A stretch of 63,993 nucleotides of DNA, counting the filler, from Catajapyx aquilonaris (taxonomy: Eukaryota): NCBI GenBank assembly GCA_000934665.2. It is 3 parts of 3 records of this genome, joined end to end, with 100 filler letters (N's around TTAATTAATTAA, not from the genome) between each part and the next. Parts side by side here need not be neighbours in the genome. Positions count along the whole stretch, not along the records: positions 21,595 to 43,422 come from KZ539462.1; 2 more parts are not named here. The stretch is one strand, 5' to 3'. A program made the position numbers and the translations under genes. Shown piece after piece: positions 23,177 to 53,245 of this stretch. Each line of letters opens with the position of its first letter. Positions within the stretch are counted from its first letter, which is position 1. The notes under the pieces were generated by a model. That model ran no database searches. It saw nothing but the letters and a program-made list of their open reading frames with translations, and was not told the DNA's origin.

Positions 23177-26100
23177 ATGGGGAAGAAGAAGCCTAAGAAG
23201 GGTGATCCATACTTTCACTTTAATCAGATGCATTTTTATGAGGAAATATTTGCCATATGTGCATGTGCTGTTATGATCATTCTTTTCAGCTTTTTGTAAG
23301 ATATTGTCTCAACTTCCAACTTCGGCCCATGATTTTAATGGCATGTGCATGTGCTGTTATGCTCATTCTTTTCAGCTTTTTGTATGATAATGTCTCAGCA
23401 TCTTCAGCAGACTATTTTAATGGCTCGTATACTTGTGTGCTATTCTCTTGTGCATGTCCATTAGTATTGTACCAGTTCCTTCAGCTTTTATGTGATTTGC
23501 TGTCTCTGTGCTTCATGGTCTTTCTAATTGATACTACACTTTCATCCTTATGCACAACTTGATGTATGTACTCGCAGATTTTTTAGCTTTTTGCTAACAT
23601 GAAACTTTAGGGTGATGATTGTTTAGATGTGGTACTAATTGCTTCCATTCATGTTGTATAGATGGAGTTTCTAAGAAAATTTATGACTTGACAGGCCCAG
23701 CTGGAGGTCAGCCTGCCCAAGAGCAACAAGCTGAAGCACCTCCGCAAGCACAGGCACCGCCACAGCCCCAGGCACCGCCACAGCCCCAGGCACCGCCACA
23801 GCCCCAGGCACCGCCACAGCCCCAGGCACCTCCTCAGGCCCAAGCACCTCCTCAGCCCCAACAGCGACCAATGGAGCAAGTCCGAGGAGCTGCATACATG
23901 GGTAGTGAGACAAGTGACAGGGGTGGGAGGGGAAGAGGTTCGCGTGGAGGAAGAGGTGGTACAAGAGGAGTAGGACATCGAAGGGGTCCACTGTTTGAGA
24001 TTGGTGGACCTACTCAGCAACAACAAGCTGCACCTGTACCACCTACAACATTAATGGTATTTGAATTTTTTAAGAGTACACTTTGGAATACCGTAAAAAT
24101 TATGAGAATTTTCAAAGGTCAGCAATTTTAAGTGTCGGGATCTCGGGGAAGGTGTGGTGGCCGACATGGTAATGTGTCGGCTTGCTGTGCGGAAGGTCCC
24201 GGGTTCGATCCCCACCCGGGAGTTCTCTTTCACCTGTGCCAGTGGGTCCCTGACCTGTGCCTTAGGAGGCATCTTGGCAACCTAGCCTCCTGGGGGACTG
24301 CACATGACCCTTTTCAGACATAGCACTTGCACCTGCGTCGCCTCCCTAAAAATCCCCATCCTTACCATACATCCTTAAAAGTCCTTGCATGGAGTTCGAA
24401 GAAAATAAGAAAAATCGATTCAAATGGGTGGGTGGGGGTGGGGGGGGGGGGNNNNNNNNNNNNNNNNNNNNNNNNNNNNNNNNNNNNNNNNNNNNNNNNN
24501 NNNNNNNNNNNNNNNNNNNNNNNNNNNNNNNNNNNNNCCCCCCCCCCCCCAATTAAATAAATAAATAACATAAATTGCCCTGCGGCAGGCTTCCTCCCCG
24601 CCCTTTGCGGCTTGTTCATCTAGAGTTCTAGGGCTTATGAAATGGGCCCCTCCCCGACATTTTTTTTTGCTGTGTGCCTGATTCCACTGTACGTTGTCAA
24701 TATATTACATTTACAAAAGCTTGTGTGACCTTGAACCCCCCCAAAAATTCCTCCTGCGGTGGGCTTCATGCTGCGTCCCTCATTTGCCTCATTGTGACAA
24801 GTTCGTCATGGCTTTCGTGCATCTCTAAAATCTCAAGTGAATCAGCTCTGTGCAGGGAGTGGGTGGGTATCCCCTCCAGTGTTTTGCCATACCTTTCTAA
24901 ATAGAGATCAGCGCCACTGGTCACCATACACATTGATGCACTAATTCCACCAGGGCACTAGTTTTTCCATGACATTGCAGAAAAAGCATCCGGCTGGCTG
25001 TAGAGCCAGTGACAGATGGCCTGTTTCTCTTCCTGATTTTCACTGAAGTGTGGAGTAGCCAAATGCTTCTTCATTGGTCCGAAAAGATTGGGTACTCACT
25101 TGGGGCCAAGTCACGGCTGTAAGGTGGGTGATGCAGGATATGCCATTCCCAGGCCCAAATCTTGCGTCACTGCATGCTGCGCATGCATGAGGAGGAGCAT
25201 TGTTTTGGAGGAGAACAACATCAGTCAAGTTCATTAATTTATGGTTATTTATGGCGAATTCCTGCACAGAGGTGAGTAAAGGTGCCACGACTGTGCTCAG
25301 CCTCATTGATGTTTTCCCTACAAAAGGAGTTAAAGAGGACCCGTTGACAGTCCCAAAAAACTGTGACCATGACTTCTGCTGCTGATGCTGCAGACATTAA
25401 TCTTTCCGGAGGATGGGTATCTGCAGGCTTTCACACCTGTCCTTCATGATGATATCGCATCAGGTAGTGCTTCAGGTTGCATGCCATTCGTGATGCCTTA
25501 TGTTCAGAAGTCTGCTTTTCAGCCTGCCTGATGATTTTTCCTGCAGTGTCGTGGGAAAACTAAGTGTCCTTGTGGGATAAGTGTATACTGTATGTATGGT
25601 GACTATGTCAGAAAGGAGAGAAAAACTTGCCCCTTTGTGTATGTCAGTTTCTGTTTATGTAGTGAGGCTTCAGAATTTAAGACATTTGTCATTTACTTTT
25701 TGATTCACCCTTGTGGATATACATTTTTGTAACATTTTGTCCCAGTTCACCTAGGGAAAATGTTGAGGGTGGTGGTGGTGATATAAAGATGTAATTGACA
25801 GAAAGAGAGAGGACAATGTCTTGACATGAATTCCCCGCCAAAGAGAGTAGCAAATACTCAACTTTGCACCTACTCATTGTCAGTGCAACCCAGATGGAGA
25901 TGTCTTGCTTAGAGGCTGCATTGAGGTAGCAGGGTGCATAAGAATAAGTTGGCGTAGTTGGCCCTTGTCATGAGGAATTAAATACCCAAATACAAAAATT
26001 TAAATTACTCATTATTCAGTGCTGTGAAGTAGTAAATTATTGTGACACTTTGATTTTTAGGAGGGTCTGAGTATGGCTGATGCTTCTAGTGGACGAGGAC

Positions 26101-29100
26101 GAGGAATAGGACGGACAAGAGGCAGAGCTACTCCTATGCCCTCCTCTGGTTTCACCATGATGCCACCAGGAATGACGGCACCAGGAATTACCCAACCAGG
26201 AATGACCCCACCAGGAATGACCCCACCAGAAATGACCCCACCAGGAATGACCCCACCTGGGGTAACACATCCTGGAATGGAGAGTACAGGAATGCCACAG
26301 GCAATGATGTCGCCACCAAAAAAAATGCAAAGTGCCACCCCACCTCCTGCAAGTCCCACCCCATCTCCTTCACCTCATGCCCCTGGCAGGGGTCCCCCTC
26401 GTTCTTCCCAGCCGCCATCATCTCCAACCCCATTCATTCCCAAGCGCTGCTGCCCGCCGAAGCGTACGGGAATTGGCAAATTGGGTCGTCCCATTACATT
26501 GGATATCAACTTCTTCCGAGTGAATATAAAACCACCAGATGTGATCTACCATTATGATGTTGACATGGTACCAGACTTACCAAAGAGGATGCTGAGATAT
26601 GCCATGAAGCAGGTGGTGGATACGAAGGCTCCATTTAGAGGAATTGCTTTTGCATTTGATGGAAGGAAGAATGGATACACTGCTAAGCCAATCCCAATAG
26701 ATGCTGCTGTAAGTGTTACTCAGCTTCACATTCATTCAGGTGTCACATTTGAGAAAGTTAGTTGGTGTGGTAAGTTGTATGCTCTTTTGTGGTAGTAGAA
26801 AGACAGATTAACAAAATAGGTGTTCTAGTTAAATTGCACAACATGGGTCGACAGCACTGCAATGCCAAGAGGGGAAAAAACCCTATATACAAAACTGATA
26901 GGGACGAAAGTCATGTGCAGACCCAGCATCCATCCTCGTGGTCAGTGAATTTTCTCTCAGAGCAGACCATGATCGTGCCCTTGTTTTTCTTTAATATGTT
27001 GCTGAAAATTAGTAATAATAACTTAGTGTAAATCTGAGTTTCTACAAATGTCTATCTGATTACTGATGGGGGAAAACTGCTTTTCACTTTTGCGTCAGAT
27101 ATAATTAGCTATGATTGCAACAGAAAATCTTGGCCCACAGTCGATCTTGGAGTAGATGTTCGTACCTGGTACCATAATTGGGAGTTACTTAATTTTTGTT
27201 ATGAGTTTGTGTCATGTCTTCTCATAACTGCCTCCTCTTCCCTTGCTCCCCCTTTCTCCCACTAATGTAAAGGTCTGAAAGAGAGTGGTGGGGGATCAGT
27301 GGGGTGGGGGCTGAGGAACTCTTCTCTCTCAGGTCCCTGTTACTTGCAGACCTGCGGTACAGTACAAGGATGTTGGTTTGTCACAGGATTTATTTTTTTG
27401 CATACAGAGAGAAAGGGGGGGAGAGGGAGAGGGAGGGAGAGAGAGAGAGAAGCATAAAACACTTACAGTACTCACAAAATATTTTCATCCTGCATCTAAT
27501 ATTCTAATGAATTGAGGGAGACGGAGTGGCGCCACGGTAACGTGGCCCACGGATGTTAAGGTCCCTGGTTCCATCCCAGCCCGGGGACACCCCCTTCATC
27601 TCGTGCAGAGTTCATTGGGTCACCTCTGGCTTCGTCTCGGGTGGTATTTCCTACAGACTAAACCACCCGGGGGAGTTCACTAAAAATGGCCACCGCGTCA
27701 GATGCACTGCACTTTGCGCATCCCCTCCTGTCATCCTGCCCGTGGACCCGGGCGCTTCAAAAATAGGATTCCCAAAATTGTATACCATCACAATAAAGGT
27801 CTGGCAGAAGACCCCTTTGGGGTTAGCCTAATACCCAATCAATTATCAATTATTATTATTATATTCTAATAAATTAATGAAGCATAGTGTATGATCTTAA
27901 TTTTAAAGCTTCTCAATGTGTGAAAAAATGTGCAGTGTATCTCACAATGTAGTGGGGTCATTCATTCCAGGTCAATTCACTGAGCCTTTAAGTTGAATTG
28001 GCCCTTGGGTTGTCAGACCAAGACGAAAAAACAGCGGATCACTTTCATTACGTCCTCCAAGAGTACTATATGCGTGGTTTTGCGATTTACCCCCAGTTTT
28101 TGGACTTACACCCACTGAAAAAAAAACAGCCTTTTCGGAAGGCAGGGTGTCAAAAATTGGCCATATCTCGTGAACCAAATCAGCTACAGACTTCGTTGAC
28201 CACTATTTGAATGGGAGTGTTGTGGCTCTTGGGTTTCATGAATGATTAACTGTGACATGGCATAACACCCTCTTTTTCCCTCTACAGTTTTCTGATACGG
28301 TGCCAGTTTATGATGAAGAACGAGAACATGATATGAACTTTAAGGTGACGGTGAAGCTGGTGAGCAGACTCAACTTCAAGGACGCCTTGAATTACATGGT
28401 TACTGCTCAGGATGGAGGAACAGGCAGCACTGCATCCCCACCACAGGATGTGGTGCAGGCGATGGATGTCGTTCTTCGGCATGCCAGGGGATTCCAATTT
28501 ACACCAGTTGGACGGTCCTTTTTCTCGCCACCAGAAGGCAGGGTCATTGACCTTGGAGATGGGATGGAGCTCTGGCATGGGCATTTCCAGAGCTTGCGCC
28601 TGGAGTGGAAGCCTTTCCTCAATGTAGATGGTGAGGTGTTCTCTTACTCTGAGCCAGAAAGGAAAAGCCCAGAGGAGATTTTACCCCCATGAACTTGGAT
28701 CACCCTGTATATAAACTTAATGGGATGATAAGGATATGCCCCTGCATGTTCACAGTTTTGATATTGACCAGAAGTCTCATGCAGTCAGAATACTGGTGTT
28801 GTAGTGACTGTTTTTATGTAATCGCTCTATTCTGTGTTGCATACTTCACAATGCAAATGTACTAAATGACAATTTTTTCTTCAGTGGCCCACAAAGGATT
28901 CCCCAAAGGAGTGCCAGCACTTCAATACATGTGTGAAGTGCTTGGGATGCCAAATTGTCCTACATATCTGGAGGGTAGGGATAGAGACAAATTCCAGAAA
29001 AACATCACAGGTCAGTAACTTCCAAGTACGTGGTGTTCAGTCCTTAAAGGAAGGGTTCAGTGATTTTGTATGTTGGGCTTCAGAAATCAAGCAAAACTCT

Positions 29101-35200: not shown

Positions 35201-38200
35201 GTTCTATAACATCATTTTTGCGTTCATTTCACTTCGACACTTCAACACTTCAACATTTTCGAGGGAAACAGTGACGTCACCATTTCCCTATGAAAAAACG
35301 CCAATATCTCCGGAACTGAAACTGATATCTTAAAATGGAATACGCCAAAAAAATCCAAAAATTAGGGGCGAATTTATTATGTAGTTTCCAAAATGAAGGC
35401 TAGTTCCCCATTCTTCATATTTTTTTTCTTGAAAGCTTTTTTTTTTTTTCTTGGTCGACCTGTGGAAAAGGCCACTTGGCCGATCAACTGTACATGCACA
35501 TCAGTACATAGGAAACAATAATAGCACACAACTGTCTGGAAATAAATGTTAGCATCCCAACACCTGTAAATGTAACCCACCAGCCATCACCGATCCCATC
35601 CCCAATCCAACACCAAATGCACAACCCAGTAGCTAAAACCGAGCACCACCATAACGTAACAATCACAGCATGAGAACCACAAATATCAATGTTGACAGTT
35701 TAATTCGAAAAATTATTCCATTGTGCACGTTGAAAATCTCCTTTTATGTATCGTATTCACAATGTAAATGTGTGTGTTATGCCCTTCAGTACAATTCCCT
35801 CTTACAAGCACAACCATGCTGAACTTCTCTTGGCAGCCAGTGAACCGTAAGATGACTGAGAATCAGACTGCAAGCATGATCAGGCATGCAGCCACTCGGC
35901 CAGATATCCGCAAGCAAAAGATCCTGGAGAAGGTTCGGGCCTGCAAATTTGATCAGGACAGCGTGTGTCGTCAATTTGGAGTGTCAGTGAGTGATCAGAT
36001 GGAGCGGTTGCAAGGAAGGGTCCTCCCCCCACCAACATTGGCCTATGGTGCTCTCCAGAAAAATAACCAGTACAGCGAATCTGAGGTCCCTCGTGATGGA
36101 GTATGGAACATGCGCAGTCATACTTTCATCACTCCCATGAAACTCCATGATTGGGCAGTGTATGACACTGCACGCACATATGATGACGCCCTTAAGTGAG
36201 TTTCCATTGTTTCATGAATTATAGAAAATAGTGGAATTGAGAGCTGGTTTATCACATATTAATCCTTTTGATACCATCGGAAGAAAAAGGCCCATTCATG
36301 AAAGGTTTTCTTAATGTGTGGGGACATGCTCAATCCTAGTTAATGCCTAAGGACTTTTTACTTGGCAAACCACTGCAGTGTAGGCAAAATATTTTGTCAC
36401 TTGCATAAGTGATGTCTACAATATCGTTTTTGGCTCAACTCGCAATAATATAACACATGCATATAACAATTCATATAACAATTTTTAACGCAATATTTTC
36501 CTCTCTGATGTGGAATGAACATGCACTGGCTGGAAGAGCAACTTTCGACGATTCAAACAGTATTTTAAAGTCGAAGATTTTTTATATTATTCCCCTGGAA
36601 AGAGTCTCCGAGGTGAATTTTTTTCCTTAACATGGAGATCACTAGTACACTTATCTTATGTGATGGCAAATTTCTCCTGAGATGGACAGTGTCTGGAGGA
36701 TTAATAATATGCCTTCATTACATAATACTTCACTCGTAGTTTTTTATTGTAGTAGGGTCTTCTTATGCATGCAAGTTAATTCTGCTGTTGGAATGTTTCA
36801 GTAAATTTGTGGGCCAGCTGCGGTCGATAGCCAGAGGCTGTGGCATGGATGTAGCTCCACCAAGGACGGTCATTAAGGGAAACTATGTGGGTAAGGACCT
36901 GCAGCCCATGAAAGGACTTCAAATGGTTCTGGTTGTTCTGAATGATTTTGATAAGGATAAGTATCCAGAAGTGAAGCACGTGGCTGAGATTCAGCTGGGC
37001 CTGTTGACTCAATGTGTCAAGAGGAAAAATGTTATGAAGTGCGACTCTGCCACCATCTCCAACATTTGCCTGAAAATAAACTCCAAGTTGGGTGGAACAA
37101 ACAACTGCTTAATGCCACAAATGCGTCCTGTGGTAAGTTGGGGCATGCAACGAAATAGTAGAGCAATGCATGCTGCTGGGAAATTTTCTCCTCTGAGTTA
37201 GTTTTGCAACTGTTGATGCATTCTCAAAGCAACACAGTACAGTGGACCCTCTGCATCTGCAGGGATTGGTTCCCGGATCTCTTACAGATGCTCTCAAGGC
37301 TTGTATAAAAAGGCTGCATACAATCGACACACAGCCTCCTGGATATTTTAAATCTTATTTGTAGATTACTTATAATACCTAATACAATGCAACTGGTATG
37401 TAAAAAGTAATGTGGTATTATTTATGGAATAATGACAAGGAAAAAAGCCACACTTGTTCAGTACAGATTCAAGCATTGTATGTCTAACTACATAGTACAT
37501 GTCAGTGAACAATGCTGAAACAAGGATTGCTGGAGAGAGACTGAGGATCTCTGATGGGAAATGATGGGACGCTACAGTTCACCCAACAACTTAGACGAAT
37601 ATCTTGCAGCAGTAAGAGACTGGGCAAGACATGGAGTTTTTATCCCATGTGTATGATAATTGCAGAGGTACTATCGGGTTCAAATACTTTTGGCCTCTTG
37701 AGGGGTTCTTTGGAAAAAGGGCAGATATCACTAAAGGTGAATTTCCCAGGAAAGACATAAATGTGTCTGTCTCGGCCATTGCTCACAATGTTAATTTGAG
37801 AATTAGATTTTGATTTGCGACTAGTAGAACTGCCCTTTTGGCTTGAGAATTTTTCCACGTGAGCGTCAGGGTTGCCAGATGAATACTGACGTGGTAGTTT
37901 GAAATTTGGAATTTCTTGACATCTGCCCTTTTTCTAAAGAACCCCTCACTTTATCCTGGTCTTGAAGCAACCCTTCACACACACACGCACACACACACAC
38001 CTCCTGACCTCCACCTCCTTAACGTGGTGTTTGTGTGAAGGGTTGCTTCAAGACCAGGATAAAGTGAGGGGTTCTTTAGAAAAAGACCAGGATAAAGTGG
38101 CCGAAAGTATTTGAACCTGATAGTACAGTGCGTTGTGTCACATGCTTGACATACGACAACTCCTTTTTCTCATTCTGAGTTATTGCATTGAGTCCTCTGT

Positions 38201-40206
38201 AACTGATGACATTCAGATAAGGATGTAGGTTGGACCTGCTTTTTAACAAAAATTGGGTAATGAGTGCATCTAAAATAACACTTTAGTTTAAATGTACAAA
38301 TGAGCTGATCCTCCAGAATTGCAGTCCTGTATTTTCCATTTCCTCAACGATGATTTCATATAGCTAACCTTTAACATTGAGCTAAATGTGTGCAAATTGT
38401 CAGAAAGGAAGGCTGTGGGAACCTGCAGAATCTCACATTGTACTTGGATATCAATAGATTGCAATTTTCTCCCTGGCAGGTATTCAACATACCAGTGATA
38501 GTTTTTGGAGCCGATGTAACTCACCCATCTCCCGAAAGAAGGAGTGAATGTCCATCTGTGGCAGCTGTGTGCGCTTCTCTGGACCCAAAAGTGTCTTTGT
38601 TCACAACATGCATCAGGCTGCAGCCTGCAGGGCATGAGATTATTGCAGACCTTCAAGCAATTGTCAAGAGTATGCTCATGAAATTTTATAAGTGAGTAAT
38701 ACAATGATTGCAGGCTATACACATGTTAGAGAAGGTAGGAAATCAAGGTGCGTTTACTTGTCAGCGATTTAATTGCACGATGTCATCACTGGCGATAACA
38801 ACACGAGTAACCAGTATTGTTTGAGGCGAAAATCGATTGTTACTTTCAACTCAAACAATATTGGTTACACGACTCGGCAATGACTTTGCTCTGTTTCGCT
38901 TGTCAAATCACTCACTTGTAAACGGGGCTTTATTCTCTGAGGTGTGTGTGTGTGTGTGTTGTGTCTAGTGTAGATTTGATCCAATGCACATATGAAAAAT
39001 CTTACCGTGCAACATTACTGTATTTCAGCAATCAGAAATTTTCTACAGCATATTATTGGTAGCAATTGAATTTTACATGTTGAACTCACCCCAGGGAGGG
39101 GGTGGGATGGATAGTTTATAATTTTATTTTGATACGTTTTAATTTAGTTCAAATGTGGAGTTAACTTGCATCACCCTCATCGCTGACTACCCCTTATAGG
39201 GATATGTCGTGATGGTGTTGGTGTTGTTGTTGTTGAACTCACCACCCTCCCCCTCCCCCCTGTCCAGGAAAACTACCCAGCAACCACAGAAACTACTTTT
39301 TTTTCGTGATGGGGTCAGTGAAGGCCAGTTTGCTGAGGTGCTGAACAGTGAGCTGTCAGCAATCCGCAGCGCCTGCATCTCCCTTTCACAAACGTACCAG
39401 CCACACATCACATTTGTAGTGGTGCAAAAGAGGCATCACACACGCTTCTTCCCCGTGGATTCAAGGGATGCGGGGAGATCAGGAAATGTTCCACCTGGTA
39501 CAATTGTGGACCACACCATTACTCATCCCACTGAGCTGGACTTCTACCTTGTCAGCCATCAGGGAATTCAGGTTAGTGGGAGTTTGTAATCATACCTGAT
39601 ATATATTTGGTCAAGGCAAGTGGCTGCTGTGATTTCGTAAACCTCACGCACTCTGCATTAGTTGGGCTACATGTGAATTAAAATATAGTCCAGATGCACT
39701 CATATTTGGATGGGGTGTGCTGGGAATGTTGAAGTTGTAGTTGTGTTGAGGGGCATTTAGAGTTTAATCATGCATTAAATTATGCACATGCTGGCATAAG
39801 TGGCTTTACCATCCATAGGGTACGTCAAGGCCAACGAAGTATCACATCTTGTGGGATGACAGCAACCTGACTCCCGACGAGATTGAGAAGATTTCGTACT
39901 ACCTGTGCCACACATTTGTGCGATGCACCCGTAGTGTGTCGTACCCTGCACCAACCTACTATGCTCACCTGGCTGCATACAGGGGCCGAATGTACATGGA
40001 CAGGTTAGTTGGTTTTCAAGGCATTTTTAAATTCCCTGTCCTGTCGTCTGCTGGATGAAAATTCTTGATTCTGTATGTCACTTATGTGCATTTGCAGTGT
40101 CTTGGCAAGAGGTACGAGGTACAATGAAGGTGACTTGGCACGCTTGGCAACTAGCATTGCCATCAAAGATGAACTCACTTCAGCAGCTCCCATGCACTAT
40201 GTGTAG
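23177..40206 (+). CDS. AGO2: Argonaute-2 (siRNA/antiviral-type Argonaute), 12 coding exons, about 1081 aa
   Basis: Hand-built exons with GT-AG boundaries and consistent phases: 23177-23201, 23695-24056, 26061-26708, 28288-28630, 28885-29010, 32263-32504, 35837-36195, 36802-37132, 38480-38691, 39268-39571, 39819-40003, 40098-40206 (3246 nt). Start MGKKKPKK. N domain ([27 protein letters not shown]), L1 (PVGRSFF, GHFQSLR), PAZ (LPCLQVG..YIPPELC), MID ([22 protein letters not shown]), PIWI ([44 protein letters not shown]), ending PMHYV*. Divergence from miRNA-type Ago1 and the Q-rich N-terminus indicate the Ago2 clade. Confidence 0.95.
23737..23862 (+). repeat. Coding 18-bp tandem repeat (QAPPQP) in Ago2 exon 2
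   Basis: caggcaccgccacagccc repeated; about 7 units including variants. Confidence 0.9.
24145..24365 (+). mobile_element. tRNA-derived SINE, family A, 3'-truncated, in an Ago2 intron
   Basis: Homologous to the 2631 and 10637 copies. Confidence 0.82.
24920..25235 (-). pseudogene. Mariner transposase relic (C-terminal part)
   Basis: Minus-strand translation [10 protein letters not shown]...[20 protein letters not shown]...[16 protein letters not shown], matching HDNARPH, HPPYSPDLAPSD and KLVxRWxKC motifs, with frameshifts and stops. Confidence 0.8.
26160..26295 (+). repeat. Coding 15-bp tandem repeat (PPGMT) in Ago2 exon 3
   Basis: ccaccaggaatgacc units encode [40 protein letters not shown]. 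Confidence 0.9.
27514..27860 (+). mobile_element. tRNA-derived SINE, family B
   Basis: Homologous to 22676; (ATT)n tail; TSD atattctaat.aatt. Confidence 0.85.
29048..29828. mobile_element. Kolobok/T2-type non-autonomous DNA transposon in an Ago2 intron
   Basis: TTAA-aggaagggttcagtgattttg...caaaatgactgcacccttcct-TTAA; about 60-bp imperfect TIR; contains (GGTTA)3. Confidence 0.8.
29968..30259 (+). mobile_element. tRNA-derived SINE, family C
   Basis: Colinear with 1408-1696; TSD aactttttaa. Confidence 0.88.
30605..30865 (+). mobile_element. tRNA-derived SINE with a V-SINE-like central domain (family D)
   Basis: tRNA-like head (tggtgttatgcttagcacc..gccttcca..gagtttgatccc); core gttctctccgtattcgcgtgggttttctcgcggttctcctgtttcctcccac; tail cacggggta then (ATT)n. 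Confidence 0.75.
31065..31500 (-). pseudogene. Mariner transposase relic (N-terminal to first D) with a local inverted duplication
   Basis: Minus translation [25 protein letters not shown], a frameshifted WVPHxL-like motif, then [12 protein letters not shown] (compare FLxRIVTGDETW). 31065-31125 is an inverted copy of 31287-31346. Confidence 0.7.
32672..32952 (+). mobile_element. tRNA-derived SINE, family B (internally deleted)
   Basis: Homologous to 22676 and 27516; TSD attgagt.gttc. Confidence 0.82.
33789..33950. mobile_element. Tc1/mariner-type MITE, about 65-bp TIRs
   Basis: TA-cagtgctggccatatatggaggcaa...ttgcctccatatatggccggcactg-TA. Confidence 0.88.
34738..35412. mobile_element. Probable non-autonomous DNA transposon
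   Basis: 17-bp inverted termini aatggggaactagcctt / aaggctagttccccatt around a CpG-richer interior. Confidence 0.5.
37240..37600 (+). mobile_element. Tigger/pogo-type element left end resembling MER2/Tigger3
   Basis: TA-cagtggaccctc...gggattggttcc; tagattacttataatacctaatacaatg; ggaataatgacaag.aaaaaag; gttcagtacaga; ctaactacat. The blocks are colinear with the mammalian MER2 consensus as I recall it. Confidence 0.65.
37671..38123. mobile_element. TA-flanked MITE with nested internal inverted repeats
   Basis: TA-ctatcgggttcaaatacttttggcc...ggccgaaagtatttgaacctgatag-TA; internal hairpin of about 55-bp arms at 37929-38083. Confidence 0.8.
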
Positions 40207-41804: not shown

Positions 41805-42174
41805 TTTGGCAATTGTATTTGCATCTGTACGATTGGCTGGCTGATTATTACAACTTCCACCCTTCTGTAGGTAGCGTATAACTTCATGATCAGCGCCTTT
41901 TTGGAAAACGGCCAATAAATGGAGCTAGTGTTAGAAGAATTCTGTGCATGATTTTAATGCTTGCCAGAATTTGGTATCAGGAAGGCCGTAATCAAAAATC
42001 TCCATCCCAGTTTAGTGTGGATCATGATACGCCCAACCTTGCTGAAATGAGGGAATTCCTGGTTATTAATAAAGTCATGAATTGGGTTCACACTATTGTT
42101 TATTTGCAGTTGGTGGTGGTGGTTGCAAGTAAATGATGAGTGTGGGAGTTGGCTTTGGCGATGACATTAGTTTC

Positions 42175-43422
42175 TTAGTAGGGGGTGGCGAAGGCGTTGA
42201 CGTGCTTGACGACGATGTCGACGAACTTCATGTTCTGGGTGAGGAAGGCCTGCTTGCCGTAGTAGTGGATGGGGCGGTCCAAGGGGTAGCCCATGCTCCT
42301 GGCGAAGGGGTAGGTGCCGTCGATGAGACCGCACTGGGCGTAGGTGGGCAGGTAGTGCTTGTCGGCCTTGACCACGACCTCCTTCTCGACCTGCTGTTCC
42401 TGCTGGAAGAAGCGGGTCTGCTGCTGGTACTGCTGCTTGTAGATTGGCTGCTGGTACAGGTACTGGTGGTGGAACTGCTCCAGGATCTCCCTCTCAGCGT
42501 CGGTGACCATGACCAGGAGGTTGAACTTCATGCCCTCGGGGGTTCCGCGGGGCAGCAGGAGGTGGTGGGGGATTCCGCAGCGGGGCTGGTTCTCCTGGAC
42601 GTAGAAGACGGTCTTTCCCTGCTTGGCGGCGACCACCTCCTCGATCAGCTGCCTGAAGCCCATGCTCTCGGGGACGGTCAGGCTGGAGTCCTGGGAGGAG
42701 CGGCGGATGACGGTCTCGCCCTGCTGGAGCTCGGTCACGAACTTGTCCAGCTCGACGTAGTGGTGGCGCTGCTGGCTCATGGGGATCTCGACGCCATAGT
42801 GGTCGTACATGGGAGCCATGAAGATGCGGACCAGGGCCTTCTTGGCCACTGCCGAGCGGACCTTGATCACGTACTGGAAGCTCTTGTGGTGCAGGCGCTG
42901 GACCTCCCACATGGGGCTCATCTGCTGCTGCTGCTGCTGCTCCTCCATGGAGTTGGCCAGGTCGACGTTGTACTTGTCCATGTAGGTGGTCAGCTCGTTG
43001 CGGGCCTCTCCCTCTCCGACAACCTCCACGGTCTCCACCTGGACACCGGGGAACTCGAGCTCCTCGCGGGTGTAGGGGGTCTGGTAGCTCTGGTAGCGGT
43101 GGAACAGGCGGTTGATGAGCTCGGCCACGCGGTAGTAGGCGGGGTTCCTCAGGTAGGTGTGGAAGTCGTTGGTCAGCATGCCGTTGAAGGGGTACTGCTG
43201 CTCCTCCTGGTTATTGTAGTAGTGCTGGTGTCCCATGGCCATCAGGGGTCCCTCCTGGTGGTTGAGGATCATGTGAAGGGCGTTGCGCAGGTTTCCGTAG
43301 AAGGTGGGGTTGGCGCTGTCCTCGCAGGCCTGGATCATCCTGCCCAGCACGTCCATGCCGTGGGTCTGGTTGAAGTAGATGGGCTGTCCGTAGACGTCGC
43401 GGGCGTATCCGGTGTCGATGGC
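42175..43422 (-). CDS. Hexamerin (hemocyanin-superfamily storage protein), 3' part only, truncated by an assembly gap
   Basis: Open frame from the gap edge (AIDTGYARD...GMDVLGRMI...FYGNLRNALH...LRNPAYY...PYTREELEFPGVQV...RLHHKSF...VELDKF...RCGIPHHLLLPRG...MGYPLDR) matches Hemocyanin_M/C domains. At the CuB site, HNxxH is RNALH and FxRLH is YYRVA, so two of three His are missing, as in hexamerins. Minus-strand AATAAA at 42104-42099. Confidence 0.9.
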   Translation of the reverse strand, partial: AIDTGYARDVYGQPIYFNQTHGMDVLGRMIQACEDSANPTFYGNLRNALHMILNHQEGPLMAMGHQHYYNNQEEQQYPFNGMLTNDFHTYLRNPAYYRVAELINRLFHRYQSYQTPYTREELEFPGVQVETVEVVGEGEARNELTTYMDKYNVDLANSMEEQQQQQQMSPMWEVQRLHHKSFQYVIKVRSAVAKKALVRIFMAPMYDHYGVEIPMSQQRHHYVELDKFVTELQQGETVIRRSSQDSSLTVPESMGFRQLIEEVVAAKQGKTVFYVQENQPRCGIPHHLLLPRGTPEGMKFNLLVMVTDAEREILEQFHHQYLYQQPIYKQQYQQQTRFFQQEQQVEKEVVVKADKHYLPTYAQCGLIDGTYPFARSMGYPLDRPIHYYGKQAFLTQNMKFVDIVVKHVNAFATPY

Positions 43423-49365: not shown

Positions 49366-52300
49366 ATGCTGGCCAAACTCATATTCGTAAGTGGCACCTT
49401 TATAATAGTGTTGAGGACAAACGAACAAACACACAAAACGGACAAACAAACAGACTGATTGTTTTTTTTTCTTCTTCTTCAGAACGAGGATGACCTCCCT
49501 TACGAGGAGGAGATCCTGCGTAACCCTTACTCGGTCAAGCACTGGCTGCGGTACATTGACCACAAGAAGGAGGCCCATCGGGACGTCATCAACATGATAT
49601 ACGAGCGGGCCTTGAAGGAGCTTCCGGGGAGCTACAAGCTGTGGTACCACTACCTGAAGCTACGTCGCAGGCAGGTCAGAGGACGCTGCATCGTGGACCC
49701 GGTGTACGAGGACGTCAACAATGCTTTCGAACGCTCCTTGGTCTTCATGCACAAGGTAAAATATTAATGTAGCAGCGGAGCTAGTTCTTCCCACGGCCCG
49801 TTGCCATGGACAAACAAACAAAGAGACCATCTTTCCCTTATGGAGTTGAATCTTATGTGCCACGGAGATCCGTTGCCATGGACAAACCAACAGACTCCCT
49901 TGTACAGCTGAATGCCGTGGAGATCCGTTTCCATGGAGAGATCCGTTGCCATGGACAAACCAACAAACTTTCCTTTATGCAGTTGAGTCTGGATACATGC
50001 CGTGGAGAGATCCGTTGCCACGGACAAACAAATAGACTTTGATACAGTTGAGTCCAGATACATGCCATGGAGATCTGTTGCCATGGACAAACAGACTCCC
50101 TTTAATAGTTGAATGCCATGGAGATCTGTTGCCATGGCAATGGCCATGGTCAAACAAACAAACAGACTTTCCCTTGTAGAGTTGAATTTGGATATGATCC
50201 ATTGATATGGTGACATGATTGCCATGGACAAACAGACCTTTCCCTTGTAGAGTTGAATCCGGATATTATGCCATGGATATCCGTTGCCATGGACAAACTA
50301 ACTAACTAACTTTCCCTCATACAGTTGAATCTAGATGTATACCAGGGAGATCAGTTGCCATGATGACTGTGTCAGAGTTACGGCGACCCGACCATAAAGG
50401 CCCCGCGCCAATTGCCATGATGACAGTGTTGCCATGGACAGACAGACAACCTTTGCCTCGTATAATATGTAAAGATAGCCTTGACAATGAAAGATTATTT
50501 GTGATGGCAAAAAAGAATGTTTAAAAGCTTTACTTTAATGTGGTTATGCACGTTGTAACTGGTTTTTTGTTTGTTTTTGGTTGCAGATGCCTAGGATCTG
50601 GCTGGATTATTGCCAGTTTCTTATAGACCAGGAGAAGATCATCAGGACCAGGAAGGTGTTTGACAGGGCGCTTCGGGCACTGCCGATCACGCAGCATCAT
50701 CGCATCTGGCCTCTGTACCTGACGTTCGTCAAGTCTCATGACATACCCGAGACGGCCGTGCGGGTGTTTCGGCGCTACCTGAAGCTCTGTCCGGAGGACA
50801 CTGAGGATTATATTGAGTACTTGACAAACGTCGGCCGTCTGGATGAAGCGGCTCAGAAGTTGGCGTTTATCGTGAACAAAGATGAGTTTGTGTCGAAACA
50901 TGGGAAGTCGAATCACCAGCTGTGGAATGAGCTGTGTGAGCTGATTTCAAAGAAGCCAGACCAAGTACGATCCTTGAACGTAGACGCAATTATTCGAGGC
51001 GGATTGCGGCGTTACACTGACCAGTTGGGTCACTTGTGGAACTCGCTTGCTGATTACTACGTTCGGAGCGGACTGTTTGAAAGGGCGAGAGACATTTACG
51101 AGGAAGCGATCCAAACTGTGACGACAGTACGGGACTTCACGCAGGTGTTTGATGCTTACTCGCAATTTGAGGAACTGAGCCTGAAGAAGAAGATGGAGGA
51201 GGTGTCAAAGAGGCCTGCACTGTCCGAAGAGGAGGACGTGGAGCTGGAGTTGCGTTTGGCCAGATTCGAAGCCCTGATGGATCGCCGTCCGCTTCTCCTT
51301 AACTCCGTCCTATTGCGACAAAATCCCCACAATGTTCACGAATGGCACAAGCGCGTCAAACTATTCGAGGGACACCCTGTCGAGATAATTGATACTTACA
51401 CCGAAGCGGTTCAGACTGTTGATCCCAAGCTGGCCGTCGGAAAATTGCATACTTTGTGGGTGGCATTTGCTAAGTTCTATGAAACAAACAAGCAGATGGA
51501 AGATGCACGGATAATATTCGAGAAGGCAACTCAGGTTCAGTACATCAAGGTGGATGATCTGGCCACCATATGGTGTGAATGGGCCGAAATGGAAATTAGA
51601 CATGAGAACCACTCCGAAGCTCTGCAGCTTATGCATCGTGCTACAACACCTCCGAGGCAGAAGGTGGCCTATCACGACGAGAGCGAGCCAGTGCAGATGA
51701 GACTCCACAAGTCGCTGAAAGTATGGTCGATGTATGCTGATCTCGAAGAAAGTTTTGGGTCGTTCAAGTCGTGCAAGGCAGTGTACGACAGGATTATCGA
51801 CTTGCGCATTGTGACTCCACAGATTATTATCAATTACGGGCTATTTCTGGAGGAGAACAACTATTACGAGGAGGCATTCAAGATGTATGAACGTGGCATT
51901 GCGCTGTTCAAGTGGCCGAATGTGTTCGACATCTGGAACACTTACATGAGCAAGTTTCTGCAGCGGTATAAGGGTGCGAAGCTTGAGAGAGCTCGAGACT
52001 TATTCGAACAGTGTCTGGAGAATTGTCCGGCGAAGTACTGTAAAAGTAAGTATTACCATCGTGCGTTCACGAGACAAAATTATAACTTTGTTTGTCCCGC
52101 AGACTTCTACCTGCTGTATGCGAAATTGGAGGAAGAGTACGGATTGGCCAGGCACGCAATGACCGTGTACGATCGTGCGACTCGTGCGGTTGCACCCGAG
52201 GAGCAGTTTGAAATGTTCAACATTTACATCAAGAAAGCGGCCGAGATGTACGGTGTGACCAAGACGAGGCAGATCTACGAAAAGGCTATTGAAGTGCTTC

Positions 52301-53245
52301 CCAACGAACATGCCCGAGAGATGTGCTGCCGTTTCGCAGAGTTGGAGACGAAGCTTGGAGAGATCGATCGTGCGAGGGCTATCTATGCACATTGTAGCCA
52401 GATTTGCGATCCGAGGGTGAGTAGGGCGGAATAATGAATTCGTTAGTCTTCCTAATTATGCAATCGAACCTTGAAGTGTGTGCTAGTAGCCAGAATATGC
52501 CATTAAGTTAGAGTTGCGCACAAATGATGAGTGAAAGGCGAAGATGATGCCTTGAGTCTCCTCGAGTGAGTTGAGATTTGTCTCCTCACGTGAGTCGAGA
52601 TTCGTCATATGATAAAAAAATCTTAAACTGATTGTGCGTTTAATAGAATTCGTTGCGAATTTCCTGTCAAGGGTACAAAAGCTACAATGTTGTGTTTTTC
52701 AGGTGACAACTCCATTCTGGCAGACCTGGAAGGAGTTTGAGATTCGTCACGGCAATGAGGACACTATGAGAGAGATGTTGCGAATTAAGCGTAGCGTTCA
52801 GGCCACGTACAACACGCAAGTGAACATGATGTCCGCTCAGATGCTGTCGGCTGCCAGCAATGTGTCTGGTACGATTGCGGATCTGGCTCCTGGCGCCAAG
52901 GATGGAATGCGGATGCTGGAAGCCAAAGCAGCACAGATGGCCCACATAGAGCGGCCAAGTAAGTACACTTTCATTGCTTATGCAGTGTGTTGCGTAAGGA
53001 TTGTTCCCATTTTGTTTCTGTCTTTAGGTACATCAGGCGGTGAAGGAATTATGTTCGTGCGAGGAGAGGCTCTGGTTCCAGAAGCGGTTCCAACGAAGGG
53101 GGCCAATCCTGATGAAATTGCAATTGATGACGACGACGACGACGACGACGAAGATGAAGAGATGGAAAATGATGTGGAGGTTGAAAAGCAAGTGATACCA
53201 TCGGAGGTGTTCGGCCAGCTGAAACCAGCTGAGGACGACGAGTGA
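49366..53245 (+). CDS. SYF1: Pre-mRNA splicing factor SYF1/XAB2 (HAT/TPR repeats), 6 exons, about 846 aa
   Basis: Exons 49366-49386, 49483-49755, 50587-52045, 52103-52416, 52703-52958, 53028-53245. Hallmarks: DLPYEEEILRNPYSVKHWLRYI, YERALKELPGSYKLW, FMHKMPRIW, SVLLRQNPHNVHEW, GEIDRARAIY, HGNEDTMREMLRIKRSVQA, acidic tail NPDEIAID. Confidence 0.96.
49790..50445. repeat. Intronic minisatellite (about 60-70-bp unit) in SYF1 intron 2
   Basis: gccatggagatccgttgccatggacaaac...agttgaat recurs about 9 times. Confidence 0.9.
50366..50411 (-). mobile_element. 46-bp micro-insertion, copy 2
   Basis: Identical to 13340-13385; direct repeat ttgccatgatgac on both sides. Confidence 0.75.

Follow-up and report, generated by a model that had tools for sequence, protein, structure and literature searches.

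A Tigger-type DNA transposon has very likely passed horizontally between an arthropod lineage, represented here by Catajapyx aquilonaris, and the lineage of placental mammals, because non-coding DNA cannot remain so alike by descent alone. The starting point was a decayed copy in an Argonaute intron of the window, by which we mean the whole stretch of 63,993 nucleotides of C. aquilonaris DNA that was analysed. This copy belongs to a native multi-copy family, and the same element appears, from comparison at the codon level, to be present with a near-identical consensus in placental mammals (pig and a primate). We take the mammalian element to be MER2, which would have both its left end and its far end in common with the arthropod family.

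To place the copy in the window, we used a profile of 86 aligned rows from other loci, with the rows of the window copy left out and with columns derived from a seed alignment in which that copy was included. This profile matched the window at positions 37239-37577 with 200 bits (E 6.7e-61), against a best score of 2 bits in 200 shuffles of the intron. Of the 567 positions of the model, the match spans 1-375, and the copy has lost its other end along with the terminal repeat there. The initial annotation had described a TA followed by CAGTGG and then a series of blocks likened to the human MER2 consensus, in an element placed at 37240..37600. The TA is present, CAGTGG follows from 37240, and all of the named blocks were found in the order given (37262-37273, 37362-37389, 37426-37447, 37456-37467 and 37484-37493); the start of the element is thus as described, but its end lies earlier, at about 37577, and there is a single terminal repeat. 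Compared with its own family consensus the copy shows 16.8% non-CpG difference over 244 columns, plus deletions, so that the near base-for-base likeness to mammals originally claimed does not hold for this copy and does hold for the family consensus. The copy in the window is an ordinary fossil, one-ended and decayed. An Rfam search of positions 36000-39000 gave six sub-threshold matches, none of them inside the element.

Table 1. Position of the element, its parts and its host gene in the window
Feature	Position	Strand	Basis
Non-autonomous Tigger/pogo element of the long form, decayed (putatively MER2-like)	37240..37577	- (putative sense of the parent transposase)	Profile alignment
TA target site adjoining the surviving end	37238..37239	+	Sequence; TA enrichment across the family
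Surviving terminal inverted repeat, ~23 bases, begins CAGTG	37240..37262	+	Family alignment
Segment whose family consensus, in one reverse frame, was set against the hit peptides	37240..37408	-	Codon comparison
Block restricted to long forms; the hit peptides P0225, P0260 and P0311 match it in other frames	37409..37499	-	
Internal stretch common to L002, L008, L049 and L096	37500..37577	-	
Host intron (GT..AG) of the Argonaute gene, 1,347 bases	37133..38479	+	
Argonaute coding frame upstream of the intron, start approximate	36824..37132	+	Piwi profile 2-69
Argonaute exon downstream of the intron	38480..38692	+	Piwi profile 76-141
Host repeats, nested in one another, elsewhere in this intron; unrelated to the Tigger-type element	37668..38126	.	

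The host intron splits a Piwi domain, with consecutive parts of the Piwi profile matched before and after it, and the element sits inside this Argonaute intron. Argonaute-2 chains are the best solved relatives of the encoded protein, and the gene is probably of the siRNA-type Ago2 kind. Its N-terminal exons, at 23619-26795, carry Gln/Pro and Gly/Met/Thr/Pro repeats. The nested repeats further along the intron comprise a small element whose inverted ends are 32 bases long (37668-37699 and 38095-38126). This element is also seen next to the family copies L002 and L007, as well as on several further contigs, and in the intron it is broken up by a young element, present there as two copies or parts. 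The latter is ~250 bases in length (37697-37948), has inverted ends and is represented by 10 other near-full copies with 95-98% identity. A hairpin at 37923-38090, with 64-base arms that are 95% complementary, gave sub-threshold Rfam microRNA matches.

The Tigger-type family occupies no fewer than 54 sites, each on a different contig of the genome (47 aligned, with 6 and 1 on further contigs), a figure that is a lower bound, as one DNA search scored 40 of 79 candidates; the matches numbered 11, 29 and 41 in the three DNA searches. After removal of repeated listings of one place, 47 loci on 47 contigs were aligned. The genome-wide consensus proposed in the initial annotation was built from these, and over the 45 loci that cover a minimum of 100 columns the median non-CpG divergence was 18.4% (range 7.7-26.6%), values that are biased low, as the copies were picked by likeness and each also counts in the consensus. 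CpG decay is visible at 17 consensus positions. Both ends, with short terminal inverted repeats starting CAG, are kept in 17 of the 47 loci, and a TA adjoined the left end in 20 of 29 cases and the right end in 20 of 27, compared with a background of 6.7%. These terminal repeats and TA flanks, together with ends like those of Tigger7-clade transposase loci, bear out the pogo/Tigger-type identity that had been assigned to the element.

Most copies belong to a short form measuring about 340-355 bases. The block characteristic of the long form was listed in 11 loci, two of which (L006 and L010) are possibly misaligned, and L048, L057 and L213 carry an alternative internal stretch; these three run into other sequence within the region corresponding to 37500..37577 of the window, which would therefore contain a deletion junction. 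Because several internal-deletion forms exist, a full-length parent was probably once active in this arthropod genome. No transposase frame was detected in the copies themselves by tblastn of 120 Tigger proteins against the 47 loci. Family copies are broken up or flanked by the genome's own repeats, and one of them (L006, on G000 C757) forms part of a large inverted duplication whose arms are separated by a short spacer.

The comparison with mammals was made with peptides that arise from the mistaken translation of repeats by gene callers, and not with mammalian DNA. A profile (A1) made from six natural stop-free translations of arthropod copies found 33 proteins, of which 28 were true, and gave 1305 matches at E<=0.001 when run against the full protein library. 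Five of the 33 first matches and nine of the 146 new best matches were dropped before counting, as long repetitive proteins in which short matches were numerous. The majority sequence of the 28 true proteins has the same codon as the arthropod consensus at 29 of 41 positions, with five more explained by CpG decay. For the majority of the 137 retained new matches, set against the arthropod consensus with CpG sites restored, 54 of 65 codons were identical, an identity that covers about 200 of the 567 model positions, in which silent changes are invisible and for which the matches were selected by likeness to the arthropod profile. Six of the remaining 11 codons are CpG products, and the other five consist of a stop codon, an ambiguous column at which the alignment splits 18:13, a 52:48 tie and two true differences in the terminal repeat. 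Codons 2-21, which lie outside the query, agree at 20 of 20 positions. This agreement of the peptide majority with the arthropod consensus upholds the claim that the likeness to mammals goes beyond what descent allows.

Single peptides have a median identity of 67%, and in a simulation this value corresponded to ~13-14% total change plus CpG decay. As human MER2 copies already lie at a median of 18.5% from their own consensus, little distance would seem to remain between the arthropod and mammal consensus sequences. Species were named in two of the 20 clusters looked up; the named holders are a pig DCAF6 isoform (A0A8D2C0Z0), in which the element forms an inserted stretch, and the titi monkey Plecturocebus cupreus (KAL0616128.1). 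The other matched clusters we take to be mammalian, given members on contigs of chromosome size (98-271 Mb) or tails that look like Alu-type and ruminant-type repeat translations. Pig DCAF6 isoform models hold the element in frame (P0140, residues 55-94), as either a gene-model artefact or a real exon. When residues 15-78 of P0121 were searched against longer proteins, one candidate was returned, with no match and no further named holder. Read in other frames, some hit peptides match the block of the long form as well as the far end, and P0121, P0136 and P0225 join the two ends at points that differ from those of the arthropod forms.

As a host control, we compared the product of the SYF1/XAB2 splicing factor gene (49459-53245, + strand), a protein that evolves under strong selection, with PDB chain 5mqf_M, presumably the human chain, and counted by hand a match at about 340 of 487 residues (~70%). 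At the codon level, the element thus appears to be more alike in the two groups than host genes are.

The ends of the element were also compared with those of full transposons, for which 80 metagenome loci were collected with an alignment of Tigger7-clade transposases. Transposon ends matched those of the element in 57 of these 80 loci and all 70 of the matches had one polarity, whereas the reversed control gave none. Because this polarity is shared by all 70 matches, the surviving terminal repeat of the window copy is equivalent to the one that, in full-length relatives, follows the transposase on its downstream side. Identity between the ends was 70-78% and the likeness was gone within about 140 bases of the end, so the metagenome elements are sister families; as candidates for the parent they were rejected, being no more than 70-78% alike. 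On many of the metagenome contigs (L131-L210) there is a distinct Tigger7-clade family, rich in short deletion forms. The Tigger3 label initially attached to the element finds no support: the ends of the element, in a comparison confined to the Tigger7 clade, resemble those of its members, and the ends of Tigger3 probably differ from those of the arthropod element. Repbase lists MER2, MER2B and MER8 apart from GOLEM/Tigger3 (PMC5753468). The name Tigger7 itself derives from a TIGGER7 fragment printed in the supplement of PMC9219625, with which P0001 and L018 are in agreement when compared by eye.

An autonomous parent was sought in the C. aquilonaris genome, where none of the 30 loci examined, out of 54 DDE_1 loci, carries the ends of the element; searches of the genome with PF03184, P0020 and three internal stretches, all yielding lower bounds, found no parent either. 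A protein search of the same genome recovered a single member of the Tigger7 clade, L018 (again a lower bound), which was rejected as the parent because its ends do not match and which is a separate element. L018 (positions 829-2445, G000 C1465) is a single open 539-aa transposase frame of the Tigger7 clade with CENP-B_N, HTH_Tnp_Tc5 and DDE_1 domains, and no terminal repeats were seen around it. Its best named matches are from elephant (69%), dugong, opossum and lizards (range 62-69%), ahead of arthropods, and in a quick, preliminary tree the proteins of mammals, lizards, a shrimp, a bee and C. aquilonaris fall into one clade without internal resolution. L018 is possibly domesticated and possibly the product of a second exchange with land vertebrates.

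Contamination with mammalian DNA, or a mis-join during assembly, would account for a mammal-like repeat in this genome, and the element is indeed abundant in mammals (8,377 human MER2 entries, if the name is right, in PMC1914374) and the assembly fragmented, with 20,583 contigs. However, the at least 54 TA-flanked copies on separate contigs form a native family, and they are interrupted or flanked by the genome's own repeats. The contig of the window copy carries not only the flanking Argonaute exons, the setting from which the initial annotation had argued against simple contamination, but also a hemocyanin-family gene, the nearest clusters of which are mostly from Arthropoda. Within the terminal repeat, the arthropod consensus and the peptide majority disagree at two codons, and all words of copy L002 are present in four runs of one sample, which are not independent of each other; ten rows from four other organisms, with 0.04 of these words, were left out of account. 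Contamination is, on these observations, virtually excluded. The hemocyanin/hexamerin-family gene (42133-43422, - strand) is a GC-rich uninterrupted frame with glutamine-rich inserts, cut by a gap.

Vertical descent from an ancestor that arthropods share with vertebrates, in which selection for transposition would have preserved the ends, is scarcely more probable than contamination. Tigger elements occur in most animal groups, according to PMC9219625, and the ends of the sister families are still 70-78% alike, but the match to mammals runs about 200-270 bases inside the terminal repeat, whereas the matches to sister families stop by model position ~140. The arthropod copies have, moreover, already lost 18% since insertion, and the agreement at 20 of 20 unselected non-coding codons exceeds that in SYF1/XAB2, a conserved host protein. 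It is also improbable, if a little less so, that the arthropod element belongs to a close sister family and is not MER2 itself, a case that would still amount to horizontal transfer within the same clade, either older or from a different member. The two terminal-repeat differences and the other deletion junctions fit such a relationship, and the name MER2 is provisional and silent changes are unseen; set against this, 60 of 64 codons are identical or CpG-explained, leaving little room for distance, and the simulated change of ~13-14% is no greater than that which mammalian copies show from their own consensus (PMC1914374).

In the horizontal transfer that we propose, an autonomous Tigger element of the pogo superfamily, or two nearly identical variants of it, would have entered both germ lines, that of the arthropod lineage and that of early placental mammals, directly or via other hosts. 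Within each host, the autonomous element would have given rise to its own internally deleted miniature copies, whose terminal repeats would be recognized by the transposase and which would be cut and pasted into TA sites; PMC9219625 describes pogo/Tigger elements as having a DDD transposase that cuts and pastes in trans via the terminal repeats, with TA duplication. The parent would then have become extinct in the arthropod genome, and the window copy, once inserted in the Argonaute intron, would have lost one end and decayed neutrally while being spliced out. Transfer, mobilization in trans, independent origins of the miniatures and absence of function are all steps that we infer from the data. 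It was probably the parent and not a miniature form that crossed over, because some of the junctions in the hit peptides differ from the arthropod junctions. No vector is suggested, as exact scans of viral, prokaryote-genome and metagenome contigs for motifs of the element gave none and blastn of copy L002 against phages and plasmids gave nothing. The similar divergence in the two hosts is no more than suggestive, since rates differ.

Transfers between mammals and insects are known for other DNA transposons, namely SPIN, OC1 and Mariner_Tbel. For Tigger elements, transfer between Eutheria and 31 arthropod species has been reported (Diaby et al. 2022, PMC9219625), involving the same superfamily and the same pair of host groups as the arthropod MER2-like family; that survey used transposase-bearing copies and states that short old ones were omitted. 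Mammal-arthropod Tigger transfer is thus already published, and no report was found for the MER2-like family. Nor did we find a report of MER2 outside mammals in the mostly open-access literature searched; subscription papers or Repbase and Dfam notes may record the link. Five family motifs were absent from the supplement of PMC9219625 (where line breaks could mask a match) and from the text of the papers searched, and family motifs were likewise absent from the supplements of PMC7386202 and PMC7070016 and from the searched part of PMC10162687.

Human MER2 has 345 bases and a median divergence of 18.5%, and was active near the split of the placental orders (PMC1914374). Compared by length, the arthropod short form is close to it, and its divergence is similar (18.4% non-CpG in the arthropod and 18.5% in human). 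In contrast with MER2, MER2B and MER8 (human, Mariner/Tc1-class, TcMar-Tigger, non-autonomous), the arthropod forms seem to have other junctions and extra internal sequence, and the mammal peptide majority has two terminal-repeat differences from the arthropod consensus. The Tigger7 (MER44) clade shares with the element only ends that are 70-78% alike and of fixed polarity, as expected of sister families, and Tigger3 (Golem) belongs to the same superfamily and is of similar age in humans (PMC1914374). That the transposon behind human MER2 swept this arthropod lineage too, at a roughly similar date, and that the arthropod long forms keep parts of the parent which the mammal miniatures lost, is a tentative reading that we consider plausible while stopping just short of favouring it.

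If it were true, the arthropod long deletion forms would serve as bait for the parent and its route, and L018, with mammals and lizards as its best named relatives, would mark this lineage as a repeated exchange partner of land vertebrates. Through this family, computed evidence links a repeat common in mammals to the genome of a non-vertebrate, and the family offers a cross-phylum case drawn from fossils of the kind that transposase-based surveys skip. It may thereby provide a handle on the origin of the Tigger invasions in early placental mammals and on the age of the arthropod burst, and it cautions against taking every mammal-like repeat in an invertebrate assembly for contamination.
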